This document shows, piece by piece, positions 1,430 through 53,178 of a DNA stretch of 64,000 nucleotides. Source of the DNA: Clostridia bacterium. Its GTDB lineage: Bacteria > Bacillota > Clostridia > Christensenellales > Borkfalkiaceae. The notes under the pieces were generated by a model that had not been told where the DNA came from, did no database searches, and saw only the letters and a list, made by a program, of their open reading frames with translations. The stretch's first letter is position 1, and each line of letters starts with the position of its first letter. Made by a program: the position numbers and the translations under genes. Location of the stretch: assembly GCA_017558825.1 (NCBI GenBank), contig JAFYTO010000009.1:5617-69616 (forward strand), in the 5' to 3' direction.

Positions 1430-4400
1430 TTACATTATAGGGAAAATAGGCATTAACGTGCCAATCTTTACACCTGAATTTTCAGTTAATAGTTGTACCC
1501 AGAAAGAAGTTGGATTTTCTGAAAGTAAATCTATTTTACCAACGCTAGGGTCAAGCATTGTGCCTAAAGACGTAAAGTCAACGGGGGCATTATTATCATC
1601 AAGAGTTTTAACTATAACATAAGGAATTTTTAATAAGGTTTCTTCCCACTCTGTTGCTTTGCCTGTTTGTTGATAGAATATAGCAAAGTTGAATGCCTCG
1701 CTTTTACCTTCTTTTTTAATACAAGTAAAGTTTTGAGCTAGCAAACCTGTATTAAGAGAGGTTTTTATTCTTGGAGCAACAATACTCATACCATAAGCAG
1801 TAAACCATGATTCCTCACCTGTTACCCAGTTAGAAATTTGAGTGTTTTCAAGAACAAGTGTAGAGTTTTGTACTGTAGCATCAGGGTATGGTGCGCAGTC
1901 AAAGTGAATTGCAGCACCGCCACTACTCTTAATTGTAGAGTTCTTAACAGTTAAGTGGTTAAGGTAGAACGTACAAATGCTGTTAGCCCAGTTGTTGTCA
2001 ATATAGCAATCGTCTAAAACTGATTTTGTTGCATAACCATTTGCGCCAGCAGTTGTAGCATCGCTATCGCCTGAAATAAAGAAACCGATAAGTGAGTTTC
2101 TAATAGCAACGTTAGTAGCGTTTAAGTTACCGCCCATAATGCGTAGTGTATTATATGAAGCACTCATTGTATAGTAGCTTTCGCCGCCTTTACCATACGT
2201 AGTTGTTACGTCTGAAAGTTCAGTATTGTTACCAAATATAGCTAAGTTTTCAATATTAAACGTGTTGTTATTGTTTACCGCAGTGTTCATGTCGTTTGGA
2301 GCGTGCGACATATAAGAGAAGATAAACGCGTGGTGGTTTACAACTCTTTCCGTACCAGGCTCCATACCAGCAAACGTTACCCACGTATTAGCAAGACCGC
2401 CGTTTACGCGTGGAAGGTTAGTTGCGTCAAGTTTAAATGAGTTACCATTGATAGAAATGCTATCGTTAGCGCCTACTGTGCTACGAGAATATACCCAACC
2501 GTTCTTCATAACGTCAGTATTAATGCTACCGTCATTATTATAAGAATTTTCACTTATAAATCCATCATTGTATTGATATTTTTCAGTAGTAATATTATAT
2601 AAGGTGTGGTAAGGGTTGTGTACGTTGCCGTCAACGTATTGGTTGCTAGTAAGTTCAGCCTTAATATCTCTTAAAACGTTAATTTCGCTTATCTCAAGGT
2701 TAGCAAACGCAGCGCGTAATTCATCGTTAGTGTAAACGTTAACGCCGTTGTTAATAGTAACTTTGACATCTTTTGCAGAAACTTCATTACCGCCAGTATA
2801 GTATTTAGGAGTGAACGTAAACGTGTAAGTTGCACCGTCAGTTAAGTCTGCTAAATTGAAGCCTGTAGCAGAGTTGTATTCTGAAGTGTCAATAACAATA
2901 GTGTCATTAGAACCTGCTTGTTTAGCAGTAATAATAACGTTACCTTCGCTAAAGCCCATAACGCCGTTTCTACCTTCAATAGTAATGTCTGGTTTATAAC
3001 CGTTTGCTTTACCAACGCTCATAGCGTCAACTAATTTTTTAGAGTTAAAGTTTTCTGCGTTTCTAGTATCGTTTAGAACAAAGCTTGCAATACGTTCAAC
3101 AACTTTAGCGTTTCTTACGTAAGTTACGTTAGTATCATCAACCACTTTAGTAATAGTCAACTCAAATTCACCAGTTTTGCTTGGAGTAAATGCATTGTTT
3201 TGAACGTCAACTAAAGTATTAGCAGAAACAGTCATATCAGCGCTTGTAAAGTTATAGTTTACGCCAGTAAAGAATACGTAAGTATATTCACTAGCTTCAT
3301 TATAATGTGCTTTTTCTTTAAAGTATTCCGTGCCGTTAGGGTGGAATAAGTTGTATTGAGCATCAGTTGAATTTTCACCAACTTCAACTTCAAGTTTTTC
3401 CCAAATAACTTCAATTAAAACGTTAGTTGCTTTTACATATTCAGCGTTAGGGTTGAAAGTAGTAGAAGTGCCATATTCAACAAATTTAATGAATTTGTAA
3501 CCGTTTTTAGTTAAAGTTGAAATAACAGGAACTTCGCCAAATAATACGTCAACAGTAATTCTAGATGGTTGACCGTCTGCACCGTTAGTTACAATTTCAA
3601 TAGTAAACGCTTTTTTAGCAAATTTAGCATAGAGTGAAATGTTGTCTGTTACTTTGTAAGTAGCTAAATCAACAGCTTGAGTGCAAGCTTTGTCAAAGTA
3701 AACTGTGCCACCAACAAGTTCGTAACCTTCTTGAGCTTCAGGTAATTGAGCTAAAGAAATTAAGCTGTTGTATTCTAATTTAAGAGTGTTGCCAAGTTGA
3801 CCGTCATTTTCACTGCTTAAGAATACTACGTCATAAACGTTAATAGTCCAAGTAGCAAAAAGGGTAATATTGTCAAGTTTAGAGAAAGCAGCGTTTGTGT
3901 CAAATGGTACGCCGTTCCACGTATAGCCTGCAAAAGTATAACCTGTTAAAGTAGGAGTGCCAAGTGTGTAAGTTGTGCCGTATGCTACTTGAATAGGAGC
4001 AACTGCAGAACCACCGTTAGCGTTTACAGAAATAGTAAATACTTCGGCAGTAAATTTAGCGTAAAGAGTAATGTCGCCAGCAACAACGGTATCAGTAAAT
4101 GCAGTTTGAAGATTTGCATCAACGAACCAGCCGTCAAACTTATAACCAGTTTTTGTAAGAACAGGTAAAGTGTTGGCTTTTACGCTATCGCCAAGTTCAA
4201 CGTCTCTTTCATAATCAGTAAGTTCATTTTCGCCGTCTTTGAAAATTACTTTTCTATCATTGAAACCTTCTTCAGCTTCCCAAGTAGCATCAATAGTAAT
4301 GTCACTTGTAAAGTTATAAGTGCCAGTTAATGCGAATGCTTGACCGTTGTAAACGTAGCCGTTAAAATTGTAACCTGTTCTAGTAGGGTTAGCAATTAAA

Positions 4401-5623
4401 GTGTAAGTGCCTTTATATAATACTGTTACGTTTTGAATATCGTCACCACCGTTTTTGTTAATTTTGATAGTGAATTGTTTTGCTGTAACTTTAACGTAAA
4501 GGTCAGCGTTTTGAGTTACTTTATAAGTAGCTAAATCAACTTCTTGTGTGCAAGCTGCATCACTATACACTTTACCGTTTGCAATTTCATAACCTGCTTC
4601 TACTTGAGGAAGTGCAACTGTAGAATTGTGTGTTAAAGTTAAAGTGTTGCCAAGTTGAGCATTAGAGTTGTTTGCATCAAGGAATTTAACAGCGTAAGTA
4701 GCAACTTCGTAAGTGGCAAATAAAGTAATGTTAGAAGTATTTTCAAACGTGCCGTTTAAAGCAAACGGAGCACCGTTAAACGTATAACCTGTAAATACGT
4801 AACCAACTTTTGTAGGGGCAGGGAGAGTGTATTGAGCGTTGTAAGCAATTTGCATAGCGTCAATAGCATTACCGCCGTTAGTATTGAAAGTTACAGTGTA
4901 TTTTTTTGCTGCAACTTTAACGTAAAGGTCAGCGTTTTGAGTTACTTTATAAGTAGATAAATCAACTTCTTGTGTGCAAGCTGCATCACTATACACTTTA
5001 CCGTTTTCAATTTCGTAACCAGTAGGAACTGACGGAATAGAAGTTACTTTAGAGTTGTATTCTAAAGTTAAAGTGTCGCCAAGTTGAGCGTTATTGTCGT
5101 TTGCGTTTAAGAACTTAACGTTATAGGAGTTTATAGTCCAGGTAGCAAAAAGTTTAATGCTGTTAGTTTCTGTGTAAGTTCCTGTAGTAGGAAATTCTTC
5201 ACCGTTCCACATGTAACCAGCAAAAGTGTAGCCTTCTCTAGTAGGAATAGGAATGCTGTAGCTAGAGTTGAACTCAACTGTTTGAGGTTCAACGCTACTT
5301 CCGCCGTTACTGTTAACTTGAACAACTAAGCTTCGTTTTTCATACTTTAAATATAAAGCAAGGTCGGCATTGAGTTTACCAAATGATTGAGAATCAAATT
5401 CATCTGTCAACTCTTTGTCATAGTACGCGCCTACGTATTTATAACCTGGTTTAGTGATGTCTTCAAGGTCACTATTTAAAGGTAAAGAATCGTAGGTCTT
5501 TACTACTTCGGTGCCATCGTAAATTGAAACCGTGAACGTCTGTTGTTTACATGCAACAAAAGTTAAGGTTACAATAGATAAGATGAGCGCCATTAAAATT
5601 GTTTTTAATGCTTTTCTATACAT
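1430..5623 (-). CDS. Giant surface lipoprotein with Listeria-Bacteroides (Flg_new-type) repeats and a C-terminal parallel beta-helix-like domain
   Basis: 1397-aa ORF with SD AAAGGAGG upstream. The N-terminus MYRKALKTILMALILSIVTLTFVAC is a signal peptide plus lipobox Cys. There are about ten G-Y-x-F-x-G-Y/W repeat cores (e.g. KTGYKFDGWFVDANLQTAF, REGYTFAGYMWNG). The C-terminal third has beta-helix-like rungs (NIENLAIFGNN, VAIRNSLIGFFISGD, LTVKNSTIKSSGGAAIHFD). Confidence 0.85.
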   Translation of the reverse strand: MYRKALKTILMALILSIVTLTFVACKQQTFTVSIYDGTEVVKTYDSLPLNSDLEDITKPGYKYVGAYYDKELTDEFDSQSFGKLNADLALYLKYEKRSLVVQVNSNGGSSVEPQTVEFNSSYSIPIPTREGYTFAGYMWNGEEFPTTGTYTETNSIKLFATWTINSYNVKFLNANDNNAQLGDTLTLEYNSKVTSIPSVPTGYEIENGKVYSDAACTQEVDLSTYKVTQNADLYVKVAAKKYTVTFNTNGGNAIDAMQIAYNAQYTLPAPTKVGYVFTGYTFNGAPFALNGTFENTSNITLFATYEVATYAVKFLDANNSNAQLGNTLTLTHNSTVALPQVEAGYEIANGKVYSDAACTQEVDLATYKVTQNADLYVKVTAKQFTIKINKNGGDDIQNVTVLYKGTYTLIANPTRTGYNFNGYVYNGQAFALTGTYNFTSDITIDATWEAEEGFNDRKVIFKDGENELTDYERDVELGDSVKANTLPVLTKTGYKFDGWFVDANLQTAFTDTVVAGDITLYAKFTAEVFTISVNANGGSAVAPIQVAYGTTYTLGTPTLTGYTFAGYTWNGVPFDTNAAFSKLDNITLFATWTINVYDVVFLSSENDGQLGNTLKLEYNSLISLAQLPEAQEGYELVGGTVYFDKACTQAVDLATYKVTDNISLYAKFAKKAFTIEIVTNGADGQPSRITVDVLFGEVPVISTLTKNGYKFIKFVEYGTSTTFNPNAEYVKATNVLIEVIWEKLEVEVGENSTDAQYNLFHPNGTEYFKEKAHYNEASEYTYVFFTGVNYNFTSADMTVSANTLVDVQNNAFTPSKTGEFELTITKVVDDTNVTYVRNAKVVERIASFVLNDTRNAENFNSKKLVDAMSVGKANGYKPDITIEGRNGVMGFSEGNVIITAKQAGSNDTIVIDTSEYNSATGFNLADLTDGATYTFTFTPKYYTGGNEVSAKDVKVTINNGVNVYTNDELRAAFANLEISEINVLRDIKAELTSNQYVDGNVHNPYHTLYNITTEKYQYNDGFISENSYNNDGSINTDVMKNGWVYSRSTVGANDSISINGNSFKLDATNLPRVNGGLANTWVTFAGMEPGTERVVNHHAFIFSYMSHAPNDMNTAVNNNNTFNIENLAIFGNNTELSDVTTTYGKGGESYYTMSASYNTLRIMGGNLNATNVAIRNSLIGFFISGDSDATTAGANGYATKSVLDDCYIDNNWANSICTFYLNHLTVKNSTIKSSGGAAIHFDCAPYPDATVQNSTLVLENTQISNWVTGEESWFTAYGMSIVAPRIKTSLNTGLLAQNFTCIKKEGKSEAFNFAIFYQQTGKATEWEETLLKIPYVIVKTLDDNNAPVDFTSLGTMLDPSVGKIDLLSENPTSFWVQLLTENSGVKIGTLMPIFPIM
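4481..4594. repeat. Intragenic near-identical repeat, copy 1 (unit offset 426 bp)
   Basis: The 114 nt at 4481..4594 align without gaps to 4907..5020 with 4 mismatches by my alignment. They encode GKVYSDAACTQEVDL(A/S)TYKVTQNADLYVKV. Confidence 0.9.
4907..5020. repeat. Intragenic near-identical repeat, copy 2
   Basis: Same as the 4481..4594 entry. A more diverged third copy lies around 3640..3760. Confidence 0.9.
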
Positions 5624-13858: not shown

Positions 13859-15244
13859 TTAGTTAAGCCCCTTTACTTTGTTAGTTTTTAAATAATCTTC
13901 CACCGCACTTTCAAGTTCTTTAGTGCTCATAACAGTTTGTCTACCATCAACGTATTGCTTATCAACGAAAGCTTTTAAGTGTAAAACTATATCGTCTTGT
14001 TTTTTAATTTTATTTTCGCTATCTAAAAGGTTGTAATTTATGTTTAACCAATAAGCAATTCCAGCCAAGCCCGAAGTGTTGTTTATTGCAACTGAAGCAG
14101 GGCGGTTAAGAAGTTTTGCCGTATCAAATATATTATAAATTTCAGGGTCTTTCATCATACCGTCTGCGTGTATTCCGGCTCTAGTTGAATTAAAGCTTTC
14201 TCCAATAAACGGCGTCATAGGTGGAATTGTGTATCCAATCTCTTTTTCAAAGAACTCGGCAATTTCCGTAATAACGGTTGTGTCCATACCGTTTAAAGAG
14301 CCTTTAAGCGAAGCATATTCCATAACCATTGCTTCAAGTGGAACGTTTCCAGTTCTTTCGCCGATGCCAAGAAGTGAGCAGTTAACTGCGCCAGCGCCGT
14401 AAATCCACGCACAAGATGCGTTTGCTACGGCTTTGTAGAAGTCGTTATGACCGTGCCACTCTAACATTTCGCTAGGGATATCTGCATAGTGGTGTAAACC
14501 GTAAATAATACCAGGAACGCTACGAGGAAGGGCAGTTTCACTATATGGAACGCCGTAACCCATAGTATCGCACGCTCTAAATTTGATAGGTGTATTTGCT
14601 TCTTCGCTAAGTTCTTGAAGTTCAGTAACGAACGGAAGAACAAATCCGTAAAAGTCCGCTCTTGTAATATCTTCAAGGTGGCATCTTGGTCTAATACCCA
14701 TTTCAAGAGCGGCAATAACCGTTTGTTTATAGTAGTCAAGCGCTTGGCGCCTGCTCATACCCATTTTTTTAAAGATATGATAGTCAGAGCAACTTACCAA
14801 AATACCCGTTTCTTTAATGCCTAAATCTTTAACGAGTTTAAAGTCGTTCAAAGTTGCGCGAATCCAAGTTGTAATTTCAGGGAATTTTAAGCCAGCATCT
14901 TGGCACGCTTTAAGTGCCTTTCTATCATTTTCACTATAAACAAAGAACTCGCTTTGCCTAATTATACCATTAGGTCCGCCAAGCTTAGAAAGTAATTTAT
15001 ATAAGTGAACAATTTGCTCTACGCTGTATGGAGATTGAGATTGCATACCGTCTCTAAACGAGGTGTCCGTAATAAAAATTTCCTTAGGCATATTTATAGG
15101 AACGCGCCTGTGGTTAAAAGCAACTTTTGGAACTTCATCATAGGAATAAATTTCCCTATATAAACTTGGTTCTTTAACGTCTTGCAACTCGTATTTATAT
15201 GAGCGATGTTCAAGTAAATTTGTTTTGTCAGATAAATGTAGCAT
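13859..15244 (-). CDS. Re-face citrate synthase (HMGL-like, homocitrate/isopropylmalate synthase family)
   Basis: 461-aa ORF with the HMGL-type N-terminus FITDTSFRDGMQS and an HGHND-like motif (EWHGHNDFY). It lies immediately upstream of aconitase and icd. This is the arrangement known for Clostridium kluyveri-type Re-citrate synthases. Confidence 0.75.
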   Translation of the reverse strand: MLHLSDKTNLLEHRSYKYELQDVKEPSLYREIYSYDEVPKVAFNHRRVPINMPKEIFITDTSFRDGMQSQSPYSVEQIVHLYKLLSKLGGPNGIIRQSEFFVYSENDRKALKACQDAGLKFPEITTWIRATLNDFKLVKDLGIKETGILVSCSDYHIFKKMGMSRRQALDYYKQTVIAALEMGIRPRCHLEDITRADFYGFVLPFVTELQELSEEANTPIKFRACDTMGYGVPYSETALPRSVPGIIYGLHHYADIPSEMLEWHGHNDFYKAVANASCAWIYGAGAVNCSLLGIGERTGNVPLEAMVMEYASLKGSLNGMDTTVITEIAEFFEKEIGYTIPPMTPFIGESFNSTRAGIHADGMMKDPEIYNIFDTAKLLNRPASVAINNTSGLAGIAYWLNINYNLLDSENKIKKQDDIVLHLKAFVDKQYVDGRQTVMSTKELESAVEDYLKTNKVKGLN

Positions 15245-43129: not shown

Positions 43130-45688
43130 ATGGCTAAACAAATTATTAGTGAAGAATTATCTGCCGAATTTAAACGAACGCTTGGCATGACTAAACTTGT
43201 TGACATTGAAGTTAATGCCGAACTTAAACAAAGTTTCATTGACTACGCTATGGCCGTTAATAGGTCACGCGCTATTCCTGACGTTAGGGACGGTTTAAAA
43301 CCTGTTCACAGAAGAATACTTTACTCAATGAACGAAATGGGCTTAACGCCTGATAAACCTTATAAAAAGTGTGCTGCCATTGTCGGTGACGTGCTTGGTA
43401 AATACCACCCACACGGTGACAGTTCAGTTTACGATGCTCTTGTAAGACTTGCTCAAGATTTCTCAATAAATCTTCCGCTTGTTGACGGGCACGGTAACTT
43501 TGGTTCAGTTGACGGCGACCCTGCCGCAGCTTATAGATATACCGAAGCTCGTATGAGCAAACTTTCGCTTGAAATGCTTGCAGACATTGATAAAAATACA
43601 GTTGACTGCAAAGCAAACTTTGACGATACTCGTAAAGAACCTGTAGTTCTTCCTGCAAGATATCCTAACCTTTTAGTAAACGGTTCTGACGGTATTGCCG
43701 TTGGTATGGCAACAAATATTCCGCCACACAATTTAGGCGAGGTTATAGACGGTGCTATTGCGCTTATAGACAACCCTGAAATTACAGTTGATGAACTTAT
43801 GGAACACATTCCAGCGCCAGACTTTCCTACGGGCGGTATTTTAATGGGTAGAAGCGGAATTAGAAACGCTTACAGAACAGGCAGGGGCGGTTACGTATTG
43901 CGCTCTAAATGCGAAATTGAAGAGTATAACAACGGAACGCGCTCACGCATTATCGTTACTGAAATTCCATACCAAGTAAATAAGCAAAAACTTATTGAAA
44001 CTATTGCCGATTACGTTAAAGACAAGAAAATTGAAGGCATTGCTAATATTAACGATGAGTCTGACCGTCACGGTATGCGCATAGTTATTGATATTAAAAA
44101 AGATGCTAATCCGCAAGTTGTTTTAAATACTTTATATAAACAAACAAGGCTTCAAATTTCAGACGGTATTATTTTACTTGCTCTTGTTGGCACTGACCCT
44201 AAAGTATTAAATATTAAAGATATTTTATATTACTATTTACTTCATCAAAGAGACGTTATTAGAAGAAGAACTAAATACGACCTTGATAAAGCTGAAGAAA
44301 GATGCTTAATAGTTAAGGGCTTAATAAAAGCGCTTACAGATATTGATAAAGTTGTTGAAATTATTAAAACTTCACAAGATAGGCAAGAAGCTGCAAAACG
44401 CCTTACTGAAGAACTTGAGTTAGATGCTGAATTTAAACAAGCAAACGCAATACTTGATATGCGTTTACAAACCCTTACTCATTTGGCTGTAAGCAAACTT
44501 GAAAACGAATACGATGAATTAGTTGCCTTGATTGCAGACTATAAAGATATTTTAACTAACCCTCAAAGAGTTGATGCTATTATTAAGGAAGACTTAACGG
44601 TAATTAAATCTAAATATTCTGTTGAAAGAAAAACTGAAATGTCAGTTATGGAAGGCGATATTGAAGATGCTGCCCTTATTCCAGTGGAAGACGTTGTAAT
44701 TTCTATGACTAACTTAGGTTACGTTAAACGTATTCCTATTAGCGAATATCGTGCTCAAAGGCGCGGTGGAAAAGGCATTACAGGTCATAAACCTAAGGAA
44801 GAAGATTTCGTTAATAAAATGTTCGTATCTTCAACGCACGATGACATTATGTTCTTTACAAGCAAAGGTAGAGTGTTCCGCATAAAAGGCTACGAAATAC
44901 CTGAAGCACAAAGAACGGCACGTGGCAGGGCTATTGTTAACTTACTTCAACTTACAGACGGTGAAAAGGTAAATGCTATTATACCGGTAAAAGAAGGCGT
45001 TACAGGCTATATTGCAATGGCAACAAAGAAAGGTTTGATTAAAAAGACAGACCTTAAGGAATTTGACAGTATTAGAAAGACTGGTAAAATTGCAATTAGC
45101 TTAAATGAAGGCGATGAACTTGTTTCTATTCAATTTACCTCTGGTGAAGACGAACTCTTAATTGGCACTAAGAACGGTAAGTGTATAAGGTTCTACGAAG
45201 GTCAAGACGAAAAGGGTGTTTACGGCTTAAAGCCTATTGGACGTGATACTCAAGGCGTTAAAGCTATGGACCTTGACGATGATGACGAACTTGTTGGAAT
45301 GAGCGTTGTTAATAAAGATTTAGAGGTGTTAACAATTACTTCTAACGGTTACGGCAAGAAGAGCAGTCCTGAAGATTATAGAGTTCAAAAGAGAGCTGGT
45401 AAGGGCGTTAAAGCAGGTCAACTTAACGATAAAACAGGTAAACTTGTTTGTCTTACGTTCGTTGCCCCTGATGAAGACGTTATGCTCATTACCGATAACG
45501 GCATAATTATAAGAGTTAAATCAAGTGAAATTTCAACACTTTCACGCGATACGCAAGGCGTTATAGTAATGAGATTAAACGAAGGTCAAGTAGCAACGGT
45601 TGCAGTTGTTCCACACGAAGACGAAGAAGAAATTGTTGACGGAGTTGACGGTGGAGAAGAAATAGCTAGCGAAGAAACCGCAGAATAA
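43130..45688 (+). CDS. gyrA: DNA gyrase subunit A
   Basis: 852-aa ORF with the [17 protein letters not shown] (QRDR) region and the active-site [10 protein letters not shown]. The C-terminal tail is acidic. Confidence 0.95.
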
Positions 45689-45700
45689 TAAAAAATAAAA

Positions 45701-45728
45701 AAAAGCAAGGCAAACGCCTTGCTTTTTT
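45701..45728. repeat. Terminator hairpin, direct-repeat copy A1 (left boundary of cassette 1)
   Basis: AAAAGCAAGGCAAACGCCTTGCTTTTTT (stem GCAAGGC/GCCTTGC, loop AAAC). It is identical over 28 bp to 46368..46395. Confidence 0.9.
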
Positions 45729-45734
45729 TTAATA

Positions 45735-46049
45735 TTAATAATAGTAGTTTAATAAAGATGATAAAGAAATTCCGTAAATAATACCAAAAACAACAGATAT
45801 ACAAATACTAATTACAAAAGCCGTAACCCAACCACTCATAAAAGTTTTTCTTTCCTCAGTTTCAGGTTGGTATATACAAAGACCAATAATTAAGCCAATT
45901 AAGCCTAAAAAGAAACCTAATAAAAGCCCCATACCCTTTTTACTTTCACCAGTGCTTACAGGTGTATTTTTTTTGTTTGTTGCACACCCACAATTTGGGC
46001 AAATAATAGCATCATCATTTATCTCTTTGCCACAAGTTCTACAAAACAT
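45735..46049 (-). CDS. Zinc-ribbon membrane protein
   Basis: MFCRTCGKEINDDAIICPNCG (C-x2-C...C-x2-C) followed by two hydrophobic helices. The ATG at 46049 is preceded by AAAGGAGG. Confidence 0.7.
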   Translation of the reverse strand: MFCRTCGKEINDDAIICPNCGCATNKKNTPVSTGESKKGMGLLLGFFLGLIGLIIGLCIYQPETEERKTFMSGWVTAFVISICISVVFGIIYGISLSSLLNYYY

Positions 46050-46105
46050 AATAAATTCCTCCTTTGAATAAAACTGCATTATTTAATTGCACTGAATTTA
46101 TTATA

Positions 46106-46122
46106 TTCTCAAATATTGAGAA
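46106..46122. promoter_or_regulatory. Inverted repeat TTCTCAA-N3-TTGAGAA in the divergent promoter region of cassette 1
   Basis: Perfect 7-bp arms. A further TTCTCAA half-site lies at 46134..46140, just upstream of the XRE gene. Confidence 0.5.
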
Positions 46123-46160
46123 AGTCAAGTAATTTTCTCAAATTTTGATACAATTATAGT

Positions 46161-46364
46161 ATGAGTAATAAATTTTCTTACAATTTAAAAAAATTAAGAG
46201 TTGAAAGGGGATTGTCGCAAAAACAATTGGCGGAAGTTTTGCAAACTACGCTTAAAACAATTTCGCATTGGGAAACGGGCTATACGGAGCCGTCTATTGA
46301 TTTAATTTTAAGAATATCTACTTATTTTGATATTTCAACCGATGAACTTTTAGGAAAAGAGTAA
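46161..46364 (+). CDS. XRE-family helix-turn-helix transcriptional regulator
   Basis: 67-aa ORF with LKKLRVERGLSQKQLAEVLQTTLKTISHWETG, a canonical HTH_3. Confidence 0.85.
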   Translation: MSNKFSYNLKKLRVERGLSQKQLAEVLQTTLKTISHWETGYTEPSIDLILRISTYFDISTDELLGKE

Positions 46365-46367
46365 AAT

Positions 46368-46395
46368 AAAAGCAAGGCAAACGCCTTGCTTTTTT
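46368..46395. repeat. Terminator hairpin, direct-repeat copy A2 (right boundary of cassette 1)
   Basis: The same 28-bp sequence as 45701..45728. The flanking A/T runs differ only in homopolymer length. Confidence 0.9.
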
Positions 46396-46406
46396 AATGA
46401 TTTTAA

Positions 46407-47261
46407 TTATTCAATTTCGTCAAATACGCGCACGTAGTCGCATACAAAAGTGTCGTTTAATTCTTCTTCAGTCCAAGTAGTTTTTGGCTCGCCTTTACGG
46501 TAGCCTTGAATTTCCGTAGTAAGAAGAATAAATTGCTCAACTTGTGAAACTGGCTCATTTGTGCGTGAAACTTCCTTACCATCATAGTAAAAAACGTAAC
46601 CGTCTTTATTCCATTCTAAACCAACTCTATGAAACTCTCCGTCTTCCACGTAAGGGAATTTAACTCTACCTGCAGTTTTGCTATTTTCACTATAGCCGTC
46701 ATAAATGTTACCGCAAGTAAGGTTGCCGTTTACAAAGTTTTCAATAATATCGCTTTCAACGCCAACGTATTCAGGGTTTCCGCCTGCGCCTATGCTTGGA
46801 GATTGTATCCAAAACGCACTCCACCAAAATGGAAGCTTTTGGAATTTAATTCTTGCTTCATAGTAGCCAAATCTATGTGCAAACTTTGGCTTGTTATGTT
46901 TTTTAAGAGGCCAAATATAGTATTGTGGGTTAGTTGAACTTTCAGTTTTTAAAGTTTCAAGCCTATTTTTAACGTTGCCAAAAAGGTCTAAATCATCAAA
47001 ACTGTTGCCACCTGTTTGAAGTTGCGAAGAGCAGAGCATACCGTCAACTATAACAGGCTTAAATACTGCGTTACTGTTTCCGTCAAGCGTAACGCCCTTG
47101 TCGGTATACGCTAAAAATCTATCGCCCCAAAAGTTAAGGCGGTAATTCCAAACGTTTTCGTTTAAAACTGTACCGTCAAACTCGTCACTAAACACTAATT
47201 CCCACTTTTTACCGTCAGGCAAAATGCTGTATTCGTGGTCTTTAACTTCAAATTTTTGCAT
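46407..47261 (-). CDS. Glycoside hydrolase family 16-like protein without a signal peptide
   Basis: 284-aa ORF with the E-x-D-x-x-E catalytic pattern in VESDIIENF and an N-terminal WELVFSDEFDG motif. The N-terminus is not hydrophobic. Confidence 0.7.
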   Translation of the reverse strand: MQKFEVKDHEYSILPDGKKWELVFSDEFDGTVLNENVWNYRLNFWGDRFLAYTDKGVTLDGNSNAVFKPVIVDGMLCSSQLQTGGNSFDDLDLFGNVKNRLETLKTESSTNPQYYIWPLKKHNKPKFAHRFGYYEARIKFQKLPFWWSAFWIQSPSIGAGGNPEYVGVESDIIENFVNGNLTCGNIYDGYSENSKTAGRVKFPYVEDGEFHRVGLEWNKDGYVFYYDGKEVSRTNEPVSQVEQFILLTTEIQGYRKGEPKTTWTEEELNDTFVCDYVRVFDEIE

Positions 47262-47570: not shown

Positions 47571-47735
47571 TTACCAATCCTGCCTATCGCTTATTTTAAT
47601 ATCGTCATAATACTCAAAGTATTTTGACTTAAATTTTGCCGTTTCCGCCTTAGCTTTAGCTTTTTTAATTTGTTCTATAGTAGGTTTTTCTTCCTTTTTA
47701 GGCGGTTGTAAATTCTTTTTATTCTCGTTTTCCAT
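47571..47735 (-). CDS. Candidate small protein (54 aa, Lys/Glu-rich), below the ORF-track cutoff
   Basis: By hand translation: [54 protein letters not shown]. It fills the whole mnmG-Dabb gap. Its start overlaps the mnmG stop, and its stop lies 1 nt before the Dabb ATG. There is no clear SD. Confidence 0.35.
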   Translation of the reverse strand: MENENKKNLQPPKKEEKPTIEQIKKAKAKAETAKFKSKYFEYYDDIKISDRQDW

Positions 47736-49596
47736 CGTTTGATTTTAGCCATACCATAAGCACCGCAATATCTGCAGGGTTTACGCCGGAAATTCTTGAT
47801 GCTTGGTCAAGGTTAAGTGGCTTTACCTCGTTTAATTTTTCTCTTGCTTCAACACGCAAGCCGTTAATGTTTAAATAATTGATATCATCGCCAAGCAACT
47901 TATTTTTTAATTTTTCTGCTTTTTTAATGCTATCAAGTTCTTTTTTAATGTAGCCGGCGTATCTAACGTCTGTTTCAACGGTTTCTAAAATATCAAAAGG
48001 AATACCTTCAAAAGCGTTAAATTGCTCTTTAATGAGTTTTATAGATATTCCTCGCTTAATCATATCTTCGTAAGTTATTGCGCCGTAAATTTCGCCTGTA
48101 GAATTCTTTGTAACAAAGTCGTAGGCTTGCTTATATGGTACGGAAGTTTTAAGTTCTTCATTAGCGCGTTTAGTAATTTCACACCTATCTAAATAAACTT
48201 GCCACCTTTCATCATCAACAAGCCCAAAATTTCTACCTATTTCAGTCAAGCGAACGTCAGTATTATCTTGCCTTAAAATAAGGCGATATTCCGCGCGTGA
48301 AGTCATTATTCTATACGGTTCGTTAGTGCCTTTTGTAACTAAGTCGTCAATCAAAACGCCAGCGTAGGCTTCGTTTCTACCTAAAACGAGCTGTGGTTTA
48401 TTTTTCATAAGCATACTTGCGTTTAAGCCAGCAATTAAGCCTTGCACGGCGGCTTCTTCATATCCGCTTGTTCCGTTAATTTGACCAGCAGTAAATAAAC
48501 CGCTAACGTTTTTATATTCAAGGGTAGGCTTAAGGTCTAAACTATCAATACAGTCGTATTCTATAGCGTAGGCGTAACGCATAAAGTGCGCGTTTTCAAA
48601 ACCTTCAACAGAGCGATACATTTGCTCTTGTACGTCAACTGGCATTGAAGAAGACATACCTTGTACGTAAACTTCATTAGTGTCAACGCCTTCGGGCTCT
48701 AAAAAGATTTGATGGCGCTCTTTATCTGAAAATCTTACCACCTTAGTTTCAATAGAAGGGCAGTAACGTGGGCCTGTAGTAGTAATAACGCCGTTATATA
48801 GTGGAGACCTTTCTAAATTGCTTAAAATAATTTGTTTTGTTTGTTCGTTGGTATAACCTAAATAGCAAGGCGTTTGTTCCTTTTTTAGCTCTTTTGTCAT
48901 GTAAGAGAAAGGGTAAACGTCTGTTTCGCCGTCTTGCACGGTAAATTTAGAATAGTCAATAGTTCTGCCGTCAAGGCGGGCAGGAGTGCCCGTTTTAAAA
49001 CGGCGAATTTTAAAACCCAAACGAATAAGAGCATCAGTTAAATAAGTTGCGTTTTGAAAGCCGTTAGGCCCGCTAAATTTTTTATATTCACCAATAACAA
49101 TATCGCTATTCAAATACACGCCGGTTGCAACTACTACAGTTTTGCAGTTGAGCAACGTATTAAAGTTAGTAACAACGCCTGTAACAGTGCCGTTTTCCGT
49201 TAAAATATCAGTTGCTTCGCATTGAATAATAGATAAATTAGGCGTATTTTCAAGCGTTTTTTTCATTTCTCTATGGTAAGCGTTTTTATCCGCTTGCGCT
49301 CTAAGAGATTGAACAGCAACGCCTTTACCACGGTTAAGCATTTTAATTTGGAGCATAGTTTTATCTATATTCTTGCCCATTTCGCCACCTAAAGCGTCAA
49401 GTTCACGAACTAAATGCCCCTTTGCCGTGCCGCCTATAGAAGGGTTGCACGCCATAAATGCAATAGCGTCTAAGTTTATTGTTAGAAGCGCGGTTTTATT
49501 ACCCGTGCGGGCAAGTGCCAAGGCAGCCTCGCAACCAGCGTGGCCTGCACCTATAACAACCGCGTCATAATTGTCAATTTTAATATAGTTATTCAT
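47719..49596 (-). CDS. mnmG: tRNA uridine 5-carboxymethylaminomethyl modification enzyme MnmG (GidA)
   Basis: 625-aa ORF with the FAD motif VIGAGHAGCEAA, plus GPRYCPSIE and TSRAEYRL. Confidence 0.95.
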   Translation of the reverse strand: MNNYIKIDNYDAVVIGAGHAGCEAALALARTGNKTALLTINLDAIAFMACNPSIGGTAKGHLVRELDALGGEMGKNIDKTMLQIKMLNRGKGVAVQSLRAQADKNAYHREMKKTLENTPNLSIIQCEATDILTENGTVTGVVTNFNTLLNCKTVVVATGVYLNSDIVIGEYKKFSGPNGFQNATYLTDALIRLGFKIRRFKTGTPARLDGRTIDYSKFTVQDGETDVYPFSYMTKELKKEQTPCYLGYTNEQTKQIILSNLERSPLYNGVITTTGPRYCPSIETKVVRFSDKERHQIFLEPEGVDTNEVYVQGMSSSMPVDVQEQMYRSVEGFENAHFMRYAYAIEYDCIDSLDLKPTLEYKNVSGLFTAGQINGTSGYEEAAVQGLIAGLNASMLMKNKPQLVLGRNEAYAGVLIDDLVTKGTNEPYRIMTSRAEYRLILRQDNTDVRLTEIGRNFGLVDDERWQVYLDRCEITKRANEELKTSVPYKQAYDFVTKNSTGEIYGAITYEDMIKRGISIKLIKEQFNAFEGIPFDILETVETDVRYAGYIKKELDSIKKAEKLKNKLLGDDINYLNINGLRVEAREKLNEVKPLNLDQASRISGVNPADIAVLMVWLKSNDGKRE

Positions 49597-49597
49597 A

Positions 49598-50946
49598 TTA
49601 TTTTTTCAAAATCAAGTTTTTAATGTCGCTAACCGAGGTTGCAATTTTATCGCTAAACTTAATAAGTTCCGCAATTTTATCGCGAGAGTGAATAATGGTA
49701 GTGTAATTTTTACCACCAAGTTCTTCGCCAATAGTAACAAGTGGAATAGACATAAGTTCCGTCATTAAATATGCGCAAATTTGGCGTGGAATAACAAGTT
49801 CTTTGTTACGCTTTTTAGAAGTTAAGTCAGCCTTAGAAATTTTATAGTAAGTGCAAACTGTATTTATGACTTTTGAAGCAGAAATACTTTCTTTAATTTC
49901 GCTTGTAACGCTATCCTTAAGCGCCTCCATTGCAAGAGGTAAACTGATAGGCTCTTCGTGAAGGGTAGAGAAGAATATAACTCTATTAAGCATACCTTCT
50001 AAACTTCTAACGTTGTCTTCGCTATTTTCAGCCATAAACATAGCAACGTCAAGCGGTAAAATGAATTTTTTATATTCGGCTTTCTTTTGTAAAATTGCAA
50101 CTTTTGTTTCAACGTCTGGCGCTAAAACCTGAGCTTTTAAACCGCCTTCAAAACGAGTTCTTAATCTTTCGTCTAAAAGTTCAATTTTGCTTGGCTCACA
50201 GTCTGCAGATAAAACAATTTGCTTGTTTTCACCATAAAGAGCGTTAAAAGTATTAAAAAATTCTTCTTGAGTCGTTTCTTTGCGTGCTAAGAATTGCACG
50301 TCATCAATAATTAAAACGTCAACGTTGCGATATTTATTTCTAAAATTTTCGCCTTCTTGAGAGTAAGCTTTGCCCGTTTTAATGTTTGTAATAAGTTCTG
50401 TTGTAAACTTTTCGCAAGTAGAGTAAAGAACTTTCTTTTTAGGCATTGTTTTGTGTATATGGTTTGCAATTGCTTGCATTATGTGCGTTTTACCAAGACC
50501 AGAAGCACCGTAAATAAAGAGTGGGTTATAAGAATCTCCTGGGGCTTCGGCTACAGCTTTTGCCGCAGCGTATAAATAACGGTTAGAACCGCCTACAACA
50601 AAAGAATCGAACGTATATTTAGGGTCAATAGGCGAAGATTCAATATGAATTTTATCTTCTCCAAACAAATCATCTTTACTTTCTAAGTATTCTTTTTTGC
50701 TAGAGCCTTGGAAAATAACTATATCAGTAACGCCGGTATTAAGTTCTTTAAGTTTATCTACAATTTTCGTTTTAAGGTTAGTTCTTATCGTTTTTGCAAA
50801 AACCTCTGCTTTTGTAAGCAACACTAAAGTTGAGCCAACCAAATCGATAGGCTCAAGAACCTTTATAAAAGTAGTGTAATTTGCCGTAGAAATTGAATTT
50901 TCTAATTCGGGCAAGGCTTTTTTCCAAATAATTTCGTAACTTTCCA
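49598..50946 (-). CDS. dnaA: Chromosomal replication initiator DnaA
   Basis: AAA+ Walker A GASGLGKTH, box VII, and a C-terminal DNA-binding domain (GGKNYTTIIHSRDKI). The ATG at 50946 is preceded by GGAG; the ORF-track start at 50959 is a non-ATG codon. Confidence 0.95.
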
Positions 50947-51098
50947 TAAAAAACTCCAATAAAAGCGGTTAAACTTTTGTTTATTTTTGCAAAATGTGAT
51001 AAAATATACTTAAGAATACATTAAAAATGCGCAATTTTATACTTGTAAAGTATATTATATAATAAATTAGCGCAAAAATCAATTATTAAAGTATCAAA

Positions 51099-52226
51099 AT
51101 GTTTATAAAAAATTTAATTTTAAAAAACTATCGCAATTACGAATATCAAGAATTTAACTTTTGTAACGGCGTAAATATTTTAACTGGTGACAATGCTCAA
51201 GGTAAAACCAACTGTGCCGAGGCTATTTTTTATCTTTGCACGGGCTATTCGCCAAGGGCAACGCGTGATAAGCAAGTTATTAAGTACGGGCAAGACAGTG
51301 CAAAAATTATTGGCACCGCAACTTCTAGCTACGGCAACGTTGAAGTTGAATTGAGTTTTTATAACAACGCTAACAAAGGCATTAAAATAAACGGCGTTCC
51401 TATTAAAAAAATAGGCGAACTTATGGGCAATATAAATTCAGTTTTCTTTAACCCGGGCGAACTTAAGCTTATTCAAGAAAGCCCAGAAGATAGGCGCAGG
51501 TTTATGGATATTTCACTTTCGCAAATGAGCAAGCGTTACTTTTACGCGCTTCAAAAATATCGCAAAGTGTTAGAACAACGTAACGACCTTTTAAAGTCAA
51601 ACGACAAGCAAACTATTTACGATACGCTCTCTTTTTGGGACGAGCAGCTTGCCGTTTATGCCGAAACAATTATCAAAGAAAGGCTTTTGTTTATTGAAAA
51701 ATTAGTTCCACTTGCAAAAAAAGCGCACTCGTATATTACTGGTAACAGTGAAGAAATTTCAATTTCTTTAGAAGCTCAATATTTAGATGAAGAAGACGAG
51801 TTTTTGCAAAGCCCAACAAGCCATTTAGAAAAAGACGTTAAAAAGTGCTTGTTATTAGCATTAACAAAACGTATTGAAAAAGACATTGCGCTTGGATATA
51901 CCAGCGTAGGCCCACACCGCGACGATATTAAAATTAAAATAAATAATGAAGACGTAAGGCTTTACGGCTCTCAAGGTCAACAAAGAACAAGCGCACTTTC
52001 GCTTAAACTTGCCGAACTTGAAGTGTTTAAAAATAGGTTTAACGAATACCCGGTTTTAATTTTAGACGATGCTTTTAGCGAGCTTGACAAGTCTAGGCGT
52101 TCACGCTTACTTAGCTACGTTGACGGCGTTCAAACAATTATAACCTGTACTGACGTAACAGAAGATATGTTAACAAGCAGTAATATTAAAGTATTTAATA
52201 TTAAAAACGGAAAAATTGAAGAATAA
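51099..52226 (+). CDS. recF: DNA replication and repair protein RecF
   Basis: 375-aa ORF with NYRNY, Walker A GDNAQGKTN, signature GSQGQQRT and Walker B LILDDAFSELD. Confidence 0.93.
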   Translation: MFIKNLILKNYRNYEYQEFNFCNGVNILTGDNAQGKTNCAEAIFYLCTGYSPRATRDKQVIKYGQDSAKIIGTATSSYGNVEVELSFYNNANKGIKINGVPIKKIGELMGNINSVFFNPGELKLIQESPEDRRRFMDISLSQMSKRYFYALQKYRKVLEQRNDLLKSNDKQTIYDTLSFWDEQLAVYAETIIKERLLFIEKLVPLAKKAHSYITGNSEEISISLEAQYLDEEDEFLQSPTSHLEKDVKKCLLLALTKRIEKDIALGYTSVGPHRDDIKIKINNEDVRLYGSQGQQRTSALSLKLAELEVFKNRFNEYPVLILDDAFSELDKSRRSRLLSYVDGVQTIITCTDVTEDMLTSSNIKVFNIKNGKIEE

Positions 52227-52231
52227 TATGC

Positions 52232-52259
52232 AAAAAACCACGGTAAAAACCGTGGTTTT
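52232..52259. repeat. Terminator hairpin, direct-repeat copy B1 (left boundary of cassette 2)
   Basis: AAAAAACCACGGTAAAAACCGTGGTTTT (9-bp stem AACCACGGT/ACCGTGGTT). It is identical over 28 bp to 53151..53178. Confidence 0.9.
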
Positions 52260-52768
52260 TATGTTAAATTTTCATATAAATTTATGATTTGCTTTTTATT
52301 TTTAATGGCGTAATCATAAGCAATTTTAGTTCCGCTATTACGCCTTGCAGGCGCAAAAATATCGCGCTTGCTTTGTTTTTTTCTTGTAGGTAAATAATTT
52401 TTATTATAGTAAAAAACACAATAAGTTGAAAGGTTAATCATTTCATAATTTCGCTCAACATACGAATATTTGCCTGCGTTTTCTATTTTTTTAGGAAAGT
52501 AAGTTTCTTCGTATGATTGTAACAACATTTCAGTATAAGATGTGTTTATATACTGAAAAGCCGCCCTTACATAAACACGCTTAATAAATGGATATTCGTT
52601 TTTGAGTTGCGTTACTATTTCCCAAGACAAATCGTCAAATTCGCTATTGCTACCAAACAAAAAAGTTGTAGCGCCTTTTTTTATTAGTAAAATCACGGTT
52701 TCTTTTAATAAAATTTTTAGTTTTTCACTTATTTCAATATTTTTATGACCTATAAAGCAAACTTGCAT
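52259..52768 (-). CDS. SLOG-superfamily protein, DUF1273 / YpsA-YoqJ-like
   Basis: 169-aa ORF. It is colinear with Bacillus YpsA-type proteins: VCFIGHKNI (vs AITGYKP), TTFLFGSNSEFDDLSWEIV (vs ILISGQLGVELWAAEAA), and EYPFIKRVYV (vs EYPDLKVAVI). SD AAGGTG. Confidence 0.6.
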   Translation of the reverse strand: MQVCFIGHKNIEISEKLKILLKETVILLIKKGATTFLFGSNSEFDDLSWEIVTQLKNEYPFIKRVYVRAAFQYINTSYTEMLLQSYEETYFPKKIENAGKYSYVERNYEMINLSTYCVFYYNKNYLPTRKKQSKRDIFAPARRNSGTKIAYDYAIKNKKQIINLYENLT

Positions 52769-52780
52769 AGCGCACCTTTA

Positions 52781-52910
52781 TTCGTGGAATTCCACAAATA
52801 ATTATACAAAATTTACAACATAAAGTCAATATCGTGGAACTCCACGAGATAAAATTTTGTAGAATTCATATAATAATTTCGTGGAAAAACATAAAGGAAC
52901 TCCACGAAAG
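52781..52910. promoter_or_regulatory. Array of palindromic operators (consensus TCGTGGAAyTCCACGA) in the divergent promoter region of cassette 2
   Basis: Site 1 is TTCGTGGAATTCCACA (52781-52796), containing a 12-bp perfect palindrome. Site 2 is TCGTGGAACTCCACGA (52832-52847). Site 3 is split: the left half TTCGTGGAA (52878-52886) and the right half GGAACTCCACGAA (52896-52908) abut the SD of the HTH gene. Confidence 0.65.
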
Positions 52911-52917
52911 GTGAAAT

Positions 52918-53151
52918 ATGAATATAAATGATGCAATAATTAAAAGAATTGAAGAAATTTGCAATGAAAAGAATATTAACATTTGCGGAGCAGCATTAAA
53001 TGGTGGAAAATCGCCATCCGCAATATATGATTTAATTAAAGGTAGAACAAAATGCTCAAAAGTTTCTACAATAAAAGCCTTTTGTCAAGGCGCAGGAATA
53101 ACTTTATCTCAATTTTTTGATAAAGATTATTTTAATGATTTTGAAGATTAA
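52918..53151 (+). CDS. Small helix-turn-helix (XRE/Cro-like) regulator
   Basis: 77-aa ORF with SD AAAGGTG. It has a short HTH-like core (SPSAIYDLIKGRTKCSKVSTIKAFCQGAGITLSQFF). It is divergent from the SLOG gene. Confidence 0.6.
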   Translation: MNINDAIIKRIEEICNEKNINICGAALNGGKSPSAIYDLIKGRTKCSKVSTIKAFCQGAGITLSQFFDKDYFNDFED

Positions 53152-53178
53152 AAAAACCACGGTAAAAACCGTGGTTTT
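53151..53178. repeat. Terminator hairpin, direct-repeat copy B2 (right boundary of cassette 2)
   Basis: The same 28-bp sequence as 52232..52259. Confidence 0.9.

Follow-up and report, generated by a model that had tools for sequence, protein, structure and literature searches.

The gyrA-proximal unit and its hairpins

In this study, we examine a 0.7-kb unit of two divergent genes that lies between the convergent gyrA (43130-45688, plus strand) and a GH16-like gene (46407-47261, minus strand) in a 64,000-nucleotide stretch of DNA from a Clostridia bacterium (assembly GCA_017558825.1, contig JAFYTO010000009.1, positions 5,617 to 69,616), referred to in its full length as the window. The unit consists of a minus-strand gene for a 104-aa zinc-ribbon membrane protein (ZnR; 45735-46049) and a plus-strand gene for a 67-aa XRE-type regulator (XRE; 46161-46364), and it is bracketed by two exact copies of the 28-mer AAAAGCAAGGCAAACGCCTTGCTTTTTT, termed H1, at 45701-45728 and 46368-46395, both on the plus strand and in direct orientation. 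No third copy occurs in the 64 kb even with three mismatches allowed, and chance would be expected to yield zero copies. The original prediction had described this arrangement and proposed that a cassette inserted into a single ancestral terminator with duplication of its target. The identical hairpins and the gene content were borne out, the latter by open reading frames (ORFs), Pfam matches and a reading of the promoters; the proposed similarity of the A/T-rich bases flanking the hairpins did not hold, similarity outside H1 being no higher than in composition-matched shuffles.

Each H1 copy is predicted to be a bidirectional intrinsic terminator, as the four stop codons of gyrA, ZnR, XRE and the GH16-like gene lie 3-17 nt from the copies and a strong stem-loop with a U-tract is present on both strands (-16.4 to -21.1 kcal/mol on either strand, z -4.5 to -6.4). 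The left copy (45696-45731 including its runs) would serve gyrA on the plus strand and ZnR on the minus strand, and the right copy (46368-46395) would serve XRE on the plus strand and the GH16-like gene on the minus strand, neither hairpin having a strand of its own. Both have 5 GC pairs in the stem, a 4-nt loop and A and T runs of 4-8 nt; counting the A/T runs, the stem is 16 bp long in the left copy (45696-45731) and 11 bp long in the right one (46368-46393). The extent of the repeat is that of the terminator itself, namely A-run, stem-loop and T-run, which follows the gyrA stop codon by 8-16 nt and appears again after the XRE gene.

Several simple origins for the repeat were tried and rejected. 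A dispersed element resembling repetitive extragenic palindromes (REPs) or bacterial interspersed mosaic elements (BIMEs), which would have undermined the original prediction, does not fit, with two copies in 64 kb and, across 1.43 Mb of related loci, none outside the gyrA junction; moreover, H1 lacks the GTAG/CTAC tetranucleotide of REPs and has nothing but A/T runs beside the hairpin. An assembly artefact was dismissed because the same arrangement was recovered in independent assemblies. A duplication reaching past the hairpin, in which the last codon and stop of gyrA (GAATAA) would have been captured by the HTH (helix-turn-helix) genes, was likewise discarded: although gyrA, XRE and the 87-aa regulator HTH87 of related arrays all end in GAATAA, the XRE family natively ends in LLG[KR]E*. 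The H1 stem is found with other loops in many unrelated metagenomes, as expected of a short terminator sequence. Metagenome and viral scans used a degenerate-loop H1 pattern, which is palindromic and whose stem recurs in unrelated organisms; no member of the window's lineage was among the matches listed, and the one useful by-product was locus L140 (see below).

H1-bounded arrays in related genomes

Exact protein matches and a scan seeded with GyrA assign the window to uncultured Christensenellaceae of ruminant and yak guts. The locus was compared across four syntenic genome groups (the window, L029, L026 and the L051/L085-L091 group), among which GyrA is 95-97% identical and core genes show 83-93% nucleotide identity, with a synonymous divergence (dS) of about 0.4-1.0. 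Across 26 relatives, gyrA terminators are subclade-specific, related species having a common stem and a differing loop. H1 is the gyrA terminator solely in the window's Christensenellaceae subclade; other subclades keep their own conserved stems, and more distant relatives carry a different gyrA terminator in its place. The left, gyrA-proximal copy is orthologous to the gyrA terminator of L051, L029 and L026. This comparison upholds the proposal that both hairpins were copied from a single sequence and did not arise as separate terminators, with the gyrA-proximal copy as the subclade's resident terminator, and H1 hairpins can be read as real copies of that terminator marking the boundaries of a hot spot.

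The occupants of this hot spot vary. The window has the order gyrA-H1-[ZnR / XRE]-H1-GH16-Dabb, and L051, L085 and L090 have gyrA-H1-[YpsA-like protein of 153 aa / HTH protein of 87 aa]-H1-Dabb. In L087 and L088, three H1 copies are present in the order gyrA-H1-[YpsA-like / HTH87]-H1-[ZnR / XRE]-H1-[W]-H4-Dabb, where W is a non-coding unit, and L089 reads [YpsA-like / HTH87]-H1-[W]-H4-Dabb over the corresponding part. L029 has the order gyrA-H1-[REPs + RAYT]-H1-[ZnR / XRE]-H1-H3-ZnR paralog-ZnR paralog-GH16-Dabb, RAYT being a REP-associated tyrosine transposase, and L026 has gyrA-H1'-[TM2 protein + ZnR / XRE]-H1''-[REPs + truncated RAYT]-H4-Dabb. All H1 copies across these arrays, which hold up to three of them, are in direct orientation. 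The proposed comparison of gyrA junctions, in which an empty site with one hairpin had been expected, gave a divided result: H1 does persist where the ZnR/XRE unit is missing, but two copies then enclose a different unit, and no empty site with a single H1 was found among the relatives.

Evidence that H1 takes part in recombination comes from L089 and L087, whose flanks are 97-98% identical and which differ by exactly the ZnR/XRE unit plus one H1. Their alignment blocks overlap by 33 nt, corresponding to H1, with 97.6% identity on one side of it and 90% on the other, pointing to H1 as a recombination breakpoint and to the pair as a recombination mosaic. Furthermore, about 10 H1 copies from three species all have the loop AAAC, with variation confined to L026 and L089, whereas the loops of all three single-copy orthologous terminators compared changed between the same genomes (dS 0.4-1). 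This contrast indicates that the H1 copies do not evolve independently and instead evolve in concert or are constrained in sequence. In the H1-RAYT-H1 pair of L029, as in the H1-[YpsA-like / HTH87]-H1 pair of L051, the two copies have about 9 nt 5' of the stem in common, among them a diagnostic non-A base. The boundaries of three different units fall within a few nucleotides of their stop codons, and the inner ends of the ZnR/XRE, YpsA-like/HTH87, RAYT and W units have no common sequence, conserved ends or terminal inverted repeats (TIRs). As the original prediction had stated for the unit, no recombinase is present in or next to ZnR/XRE; the same holds near every array, and neither an integrase nor a recombinase was found among 10 other mid-sized ORFs of the window.

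Other occupants of the gap deserve description in their own right. Directly after an H1 copy, L029 (12596-13473) and L026 (13508-14106) carry a REPtron, with the RAYT amid two REP types that are flanked by GTAG/CTAC; the RAYT ORF itself contains an inserted REP, and L029 12797 has a duplicate of a half-H1 (GCCTTGCTTTTTT) with a REP after it. The L029 RAYT scores 80.6 bits against an NCBIfam cutoff of 80 and is accompanied by its own REPs, GGGCGGATATGGAATCCGCCCCTAC and GTAGGGGAGCAT...ATGCTCCC. Action of the RAYT on H1 was rejected, as the enzyme has its own canonical REPs and H1 is without GTAG. W (L087 4929-5402, between Dabb and ZnR/XRE) consists of small hairpin repeats with a 97-nt period in 2.9 copies at 90% identity and also carries 23-nt repeats; its three tandem matches to the Rfam Gut-1 RNA are sub-threshold (33 bits against a gathering score of 50) and were not taken as family members. 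In L029, two tandem zinc-ribbon proteins with two transmembrane (TM) helices (14187-15050), which are 39-44% identical paralogs of ZnR, have their own terminator H3 and no regulator, and L005/L006 as well as L026 encode TM2-domain mini-proteins at the same locus, making the gyrA-Dabb gap a hot spot for small membrane proteins. The GH16-like gene (46407-47261) lies between H1 and Dabb in the window and L029 and is missing from L051, L026 and L087; its 3' end (TTATTCAATTTCGTC) resembles that of Dabb (TTAGTCAATTTCGTA), which hints at another microhomology insertion at a gene 3' end.

A second hairpin-bounded unit at recF

A repeat search of the window returned one further hairpin pair, AAAAACCACGGTAAAAACCGTGGTTTT (H2; 52233-52260 and 53153-53178), and the H1 and H2 pairs are its only duplicated hairpins. 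The H2 unit (unit 2, the ZnR/XRE unit being unit 1) sits between the convergent recF and a BFD-like gene and has the architecture of unit 1. Its left hairpin (AAAAACCACGGTAAAAACCGTGGTTTTT, 52233-52260) would terminate recF on the plus strand and, on the minus strand, the cargo gene for a 169-aa YpsA/SLOG-family protein (52259-52768; PF06908, 28.4 bits against a cutoff of 27.7), for which PADLOC gave no match. A divergent promoter region (52780-52905) with repeated operator-like palindromes, TCGTGGAA(n)TCCACGA, separates this gene from that of a 77-aa HTH regulator (HTH77; 52918-53151, plus strand), and the right hairpin (53153-53178) would terminate HTH77 on the plus strand and the BFD-like gene on the minus strand; like H1, neither H2 copy is assigned to a strand. 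Rfam matches at H2 to BSnc120 and SpF25 are sub-threshold and were not taken as family members.

HTH77 has more than 600 relatives at at least 84% identity in various genomic contexts, with or without YpsA, and the operator-like motif also occurs upstream of such relatives elsewhere. The regulator is without a Pfam family and holds this identity across hundreds of protein clusters (P0088-P0207; L235-L248), standing after SpoIIE, after hydrogenase or with YpsA between other genes. A small regulator is not usually conserved to this degree, suggesting that HTH77 either is mobile or has a core role.

The ends of the genes at this locus carry a record of how unit 2 may have arrived. In five other contexts HTH77 ends in GATTTTGAAGAA-TAA, followed in two of the five by a hairpin with a CCACGG(G) stem, and recF without unit 2 (L051/L085, L089, L026) ends in ATTGAAAAT-TAA-AAA. 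In the window and L029, recF instead ends in ATTGAAGAA-TAA-TATGC-A6-H2 (...GAAGAA-TAA), and HTH77 ends in TTTGAAGAT-TAA-A7 (...GAAGAT-TAA-A7), a hybrid with the native recF end. recF and HTH77 have thus exchanged their 3' ends, as the reciprocal products of one crossover within about 11 nt of microhomology. This is the outcome expected of one crossover between recF and a circular or permuted unit consisting of H2 and the divergent YpsA and HTH77 genes, in which one bidirectional terminator would serve both genes.

The recF empty site in L051 has an unrelated hairpin, and unit 2 of L029 has H2 on its left and a different stem-loop, H2b, on its right, set between A-run and T-run flanks that match those of the right H2 of the window. 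Together with the swapped ends, these observations argue against simple target duplication for unit 2. They further indicate that a replacement confined to the stem-loop, by homogenisation or turnover, happened in one lineage; its polarity (H2/H2 in the window against H2/H2b in L029) did not emerge from further relatives, where HTH77 homologues sit in other contexts. Replacement of a whole stem-loop between close relatives, within orthologous A/T-run flanks, is seen at window 53153, L029 21966 and L051 18460 (H2, H2b and Hc) and between L226 and L227; elsewhere stems are conserved and loops alone drift.

Similar hairpin pairs at other loci

Identical or near-identical direct hairpin pairs around divergent HTH units were also found at L012, L019, L140 and L225. 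The L012 pair adjoins glyA, the L019 pair encloses a unit of a zinc-ribbon multi-TM protein and an XRE regulator (the sister locus L021 has differing hairpins on its two sides), and L140, from an unrelated low-GC organism, has an exact 28-nt pair. Orientation is direct in 6/6 independent hairpin families, and XRE-type units have a hairpin sequence particular to each locus (H1, H' and others). An identical pair at L044 was left out as an ordinary tandem tRNA duplication.

The L225 locus has a longer direct repeat (1618-1701 and 3312-3396) of 85 nt and 81% identity, made up of the 3' end of tRNA-Gly(tcc) and its terminator, around a 1.6-kb unit that encodes XRE78, a PH_gly_zipper protein and a 194-aa protein and has no integrase. 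In sequence terms, this repeat has the textbook signature of attachment (att) sites around an integrase-less XRE unit. Homologous units at L226/L227, L231 and L235 have unrelated hairpins on their two sides, so hairpin identity is not required for a unit to exist.

Regulation and conservation of the ZnR/XRE unit

ZnR, the presumed regulated cargo of the unit, is predicted to carry an N-terminal CxxC...CxxC zinc ribbon (Zn_Ribbon_1, E 8.6e-6), a linker and two TM helices, the zinc ribbon being placed in the cytoplasm and the helices in the membrane. A Shine-Dalgarno sequence, AGGAGGAA on the minus strand (46056-46063; AGGAGG), is kept in four species and fixes the start at 46049 and the length at 104 aa, the length also called in public assemblies. 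The sigma-70-type ZnR promoter (46100-46128, minus strand), with a -35 TTGACT, a 17-nt spacer and a -10 TATAAT (11/12 matches), is invariant in the four species, and its spacer contains a putative operator palindrome, TTCTCAA-ATA-TTGAGAA (46106-46122). A third half-site, TTCTCAA (46135-46141), lies upstream of the XRE -10 element and is probably an autoregulation site for XRE; neither operator element has a strand. The conserved extended -10 of XRE, TGaTACAAT (46146-46154, plus strand), ends 6 nt before the XRE ATG, and the XRE mRNA is probably leaderless, as the ATG lies 7 nt past the -10 without a Shine-Dalgarno. XRE itself is a Cro/C1-type HTH protein (Pfam HTH_3, E 1e-17).

The operator/promoter core of about 60 nt is 100% identical in four species separated by a dS of 0.4-1, an invariance that is strong evidence for the function of palindrome and half-site. 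A palindrome related to the unit-1 operator occurs upstream of a 71%-identical XRE in L249, and proteins of this family (XRE67; 63-70 aa) are regularly encoded divergently from small membrane or unknown genes that vary between genomes. We infer an XRE-repressed, autoregulated switch controlling a small membrane protein as the best-supported function of the unit: XRE would bind TTCTCAA-N3-TTGAGAA in the spacer of the divergent promoter and repress ZnR, the half-site at the extended -10 would give autoregulation, and the H1 copies would insulate the module from its convergent neighbours gyrA and GH16.

Both genes are under purifying selection. Between species, XRE shows 85-90% nucleotide identity, like core genes, with dN/dS 0.04-0.28, and ZnR shows 74-77% with dN/dS 0.1-0.25. 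Recent horizontal arrival was rejected, the divergence of the unit being in line with that of core genes (dS 0.4-1), and the unit is thus an old, vertically inherited and functional resident that diverged in step with them. Such long residence would explain why no empty site with a single H1 is present among close relatives.

Database searches added little to the function of the two proteins. ZnR has no family match in PADLOC or NCBIfam, with Pfam and NCBIfam detecting the zinc ribbon only; XRE gives generic HTH matches only, all below family cutoffs; and PHROG matches are limited to the zinc ribbon and HTH regions. No DNA or protein match to the unit was found in 50,697 phage records or 72,556 plasmids. 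The suggestion of a toxin/abortive-infection (Abi) or prophage-remnant module therefore found no backing, the genes being divergent rather than co-operonic, and toxin, Abi and prophage-remnant readings of unit 1 are speculation.

Origin of the paired hairpins

The explanation we tentatively prefer, at somewhat less than an even chance, is a terminator-associated cassette hot spot in which the identical hairpins are att-like joints of short homology. Each unit would consist of one hairpin and a divergent gene pair, requiring a single bidirectional terminator when circular or permuted. One Campbell-type crossover between such a unit and the resident terminator region, or alternatively a template switch, would join the two and leave a hairpin on each side. 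Repeated events and unequal exchange between H1 copies would build arrays, and recombination between H1 copies would delete or reshuffle units and keep the copies homogeneous. Two parts of the model are inferred, namely the circular or permuted intermediate and the enzymatic machinery, for which host recombination (homologous or illegitimate) and a trans-acting recombinase are candidates. As in att-flanked units, direct repeats stand at both ends of the H1, H2 and L225 units, and one repeat of each pair overlaps a host gene at its 3' end or terminator. Hybrid crossover junctions are seen at unit 2; at unit 1 the common GAATAA ends of gyrA, XRE and HTH87 would hide any such junction.

A number of observations weigh against this explanation. 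At the loci examined, neither a circular form nor a single-H1 empty site nor a recombinase was observed, and unit 1 itself has no detectable crossover signature, flank similarity beyond the hairpin not being significant. In L085, which lacks the ZnR/XRE-H1-W-H4 segment relative to L087, the junction is a microhomology of about 9 nt outside H1. At unit 2, the right hairpin differs from that of L029 only in the stem-loop, which calls for an extra step of homogenisation or turnover, and a CCACGG stem recurs by chance in about 1% of hairpins in these data, so that the claim that H2 came with its cargo draws on two outside contexts only. A length of 28-36 bp is also short for RecA-dependent integration. 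Moreover, as the ZnR/XRE unit is ancient, differential deletion from an ancestral array, without ongoing insertion, could largely explain the array differences. The original event at unit 1 is too old to reconstruct.

A bolder extension of the hot-spot model, which we hold to be unlikely, makes the hairpins the recombination sites of an undescribed class of Firmicutes mini-cassettes that are integrase-less, bear their own promoters, pair an HTH regulator with a divergent cargo gene and carry one hairpin each. The gyrA terminator would then be a functionally integron-like platform, serviced by a structure-specific recombinase acting in trans or by hairpin-stimulated template switching, with the asymmetric loop as the crossover or spacer region. 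A full-text literature search found no description of identical terminator pairs flanking cassettes, which does not by itself show that none exists.

Post-hoc homogenisation, also unlikely in our estimate, would make the identity of the hairpins silent on insertion: independent terminators with like A/T-run flanks would have been converted to one stem-loop by short-tract gene conversion or by template switching at stalled forks. The stem-loop-only change between the window (H2/H2) and L029 (H2/H2b) within the same A/T-run flanks speaks for such a process, as does the concerted evolution of H1 copies, and the association with divergent HTH units would follow, since two bidirectional terminators come to lie within 2 kb only where genes are laid out convergent-divergent-convergent. 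Yet conversion through A/T-run microhomology should ignore orientation, and all six families are direct (p about 0.016); H3 and H4 have not become like H1, although 16 to about 500 bp separate them from its copies; and the recF end swap and the 85-nt repeat of L225 are left unexplained. The literature search found no precedent for terminator homogenisation by short-tract conversion, nor do we know of one.

Target-site duplication, the mechanism of the original prediction, seems rather improbable. An integrase or transposase acting in trans, akin to a casposase or Cas1 or else a DDE enzyme that makes long staggered cuts, would cut on both sides of the hairpin and join an arbitrary unit, with gap repair duplicating the roughly 30-nt hairpin, a scheme that accommodates the uniformly direct orientation, the locus-specific hairpins of XRE-type units and the approximately 9 nt upstream of the stem, including a non-A base, that the copies flanking RAYT (L029) and the YpsA-like unit (L051) share. 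It does not account for unit 2, where recF lost its native 3' end and gained the end of the cargo gene with a cargo-type hairpin, where the empty site has another hairpin and where the two hairpins of L029 differ. In addition, the units are without conserved ends or TIRs, no such enzyme is encoded in the window and no transposase in the unit (ZnR and XRE being its only genes), flank similarity ends at the hairpin as far as significance goes, and the L225 repeats, which are 81% identical and include a tRNA 3' end, are typical of attP x attB recombination rather than of target duplication. Of the initial proposal, the idea that the H1 copies derive from the resident gyrA terminator survives; recency of the unit does not, and duplication is contradicted at the architecturally identical unit 2. 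Overall, the comparison favours short-homology, att-like recombination over staggered-cut target duplication.

Only a slim chance is given to H1 as a dedicated site-specific recombination site, lox- or attC-like, in which 11-bp inverted arms enclose the asymmetric spacer CAAACG; its recombinase would be encoded at another place in the genome, and the gyrA-proximal array would be an integron-like platform. One H1 per unit, the variable unit order, the direct orientation of all copies, the breakpoint inside H1, the invariance of arms and asymmetric spacer across species despite a dS of 0.4-1, and the parsing of both H1 and H2 as 11-6-11 = 28 bp are all in keeping with it. Against these stand the lack of a recombinase near any array or among the 10 mid-sized window ORFs, the use of unrelated hairpins at other loci, including some with 5- and 8-nt spacers, the absence from H1 of the bulged bases and R/L boxes of attC, and the resemblance of H1 to an ordinary terminator, which is how it serves gyrA.

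Finally, a decayed prophage or integrative element in the gyrA terminator, with the hairpins as attL/attR and the XRE and membrane protein as a leftover lysogeny/exclusion module or toxin-antitoxin (TA)/Abi pair, is very improbable. In its favour, XRE resembles phage repressors (phrog_8, 3e-20; RstR family, 2.8e-15, below cutoff), weak matches link the ZnR zinc ribbon to 'moron' membrane proteins of phages, and L225 has its att-like tRNA-3'-end repeat around a related unit. Against it, phage and plasmid relatives are lacking at the DNA and protein level, PADLOC matches neither ZnR nor the YpsA proteins, random decay would hardly leave three units bounded within a few nucleotides of stop codons, purifying selection has accompanied the vertical inheritance of the unit across species, and the two genes diverge, unlike a co-transcribed TA pair.

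Genomic context and significance

The neighbours of the locus are gyrB, gyrA, GH16, Dabb, mnmG, dnaA and recF. Gene order at the replication initiator is unusual (47719-52226), with dnaA (49598-50959, minus strand) followed directly by mnmG on the same strand and divergent from recF about 140 bp away, with no dnaN between them; gyrB-gyrA lies about 4 kb from the dnaA region on the opposite strand, and both hairpin-bounded units fall within 5 kb of dnaA. Elsewhere in the window, three diverged copies of an approximately 159-nt repeat and shorter sub-repeats (3569-5119) lie inside a 1397-aa ORF (1430-5623, minus strand), so that the encoded protein has tandem repeated domains.

If the hot-spot model is correct, terminator hairpins acting as joints would be a simple route of accessory-gene turnover without an adjacent integrase, beside essential genes and in a major, largely uncultured gut lineage. 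It would explain sequence-identical neighbouring terminators and tie terminator evolution to the biology of mobile cassettes, including the origin of integron-type cassettes and their palindromic sites, and two identical terminators in direct orientation within 2 kb of each other could be a cheap genomic signature for such units. On a conservative reading, the locus is a clear natural case of concerted terminator evolution, together with a well-defined and directly testable switch of XRE, operator and membrane protein.

Comparison with known systems

Integrase-less, att-flanked elements that accrete by site-specific recombination are known from the cis-mobilizable elements (CIMEs) next to ICESt1/ICESt3 at the fda 3' end and from tandem islands of the tycheposon type. 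As in those systems, each unit here is delimited by short direct repeats at a housekeeping-gene 3' end, unrelated units stand in tandem with the same repeat between them and without a recombinase of their own, and units are gained or lost together with exactly one repeat. Unlike them, the present units are only 0.6-0.9 kb long and end a few nucleotides from stop codons, their repeat amounts to a perfect bidirectional terminator hairpin and nothing else, and no cognate integrase-bearing element was seen at the site.

Integron cassettes, their attC sites and clusters of attC sites lacking integron-integrases (CALINs) offer another parallel, in an array of compact units with one palindrome each, a variable order and a proposed one-site circle. 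However, H1 is 28-36 nt long, perfectly paired and devoid of R''/L''/L'/R' boxes and extrahelical bases, whereas attC sites measure 57-141 nt; the units carry their own promoters, regulator and terminator, whereas integron cassettes are promoterless; and no IntI, attI or Pc promoter adjoins the array, the lineage is Firmicutes, and other loci use unrelated hairpins. H1 and H2 can be parsed as 11-6-11 on the scheme of Xer/dif sites (28 bp, with 11-bp XerC/XerD arms and a 6-bp spacer); however, their arms are a terminator-like A-run and GC stem, and the L012 and L019 hairpins do not fit the scheme.

With ordinary bidirectional Rho-independent terminators, H1 shares an A-run, GC-rich stem, 4-nt loop and T-run close to convergent stops; those terminators are single-copy and their loops drift between species, whereas H1 is present in 2-3 copies per locus that stay identical. 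REP/BIME elements with their RAYTs are likewise extragenic palindromes at gene 3' ends, and a true REPtron is one of the units next to H1 (L029, L026), yet H1 is not dispersed, has no GTAG/CTAC and is found only at the gyrA locus. Type II TA and Abi systems are a poor match, with no PADLOC matches (0) for ZnR and genes that are divergent rather than co-transcribed. In its regulation, the ZnR/XRE unit resembles XRE/Cro-C1 switches such as those of phage immunity and of C-protein units in restriction-modification (R-M) systems, with a small HTH repressor whose mRNA is probably leaderless, a divergent promoter enclosing a palindromic operator, and half-sites for autoregulation; it differs from them in its target, which is a small zinc-ribbon membrane protein in place of phage, R-M or TA partner genes.

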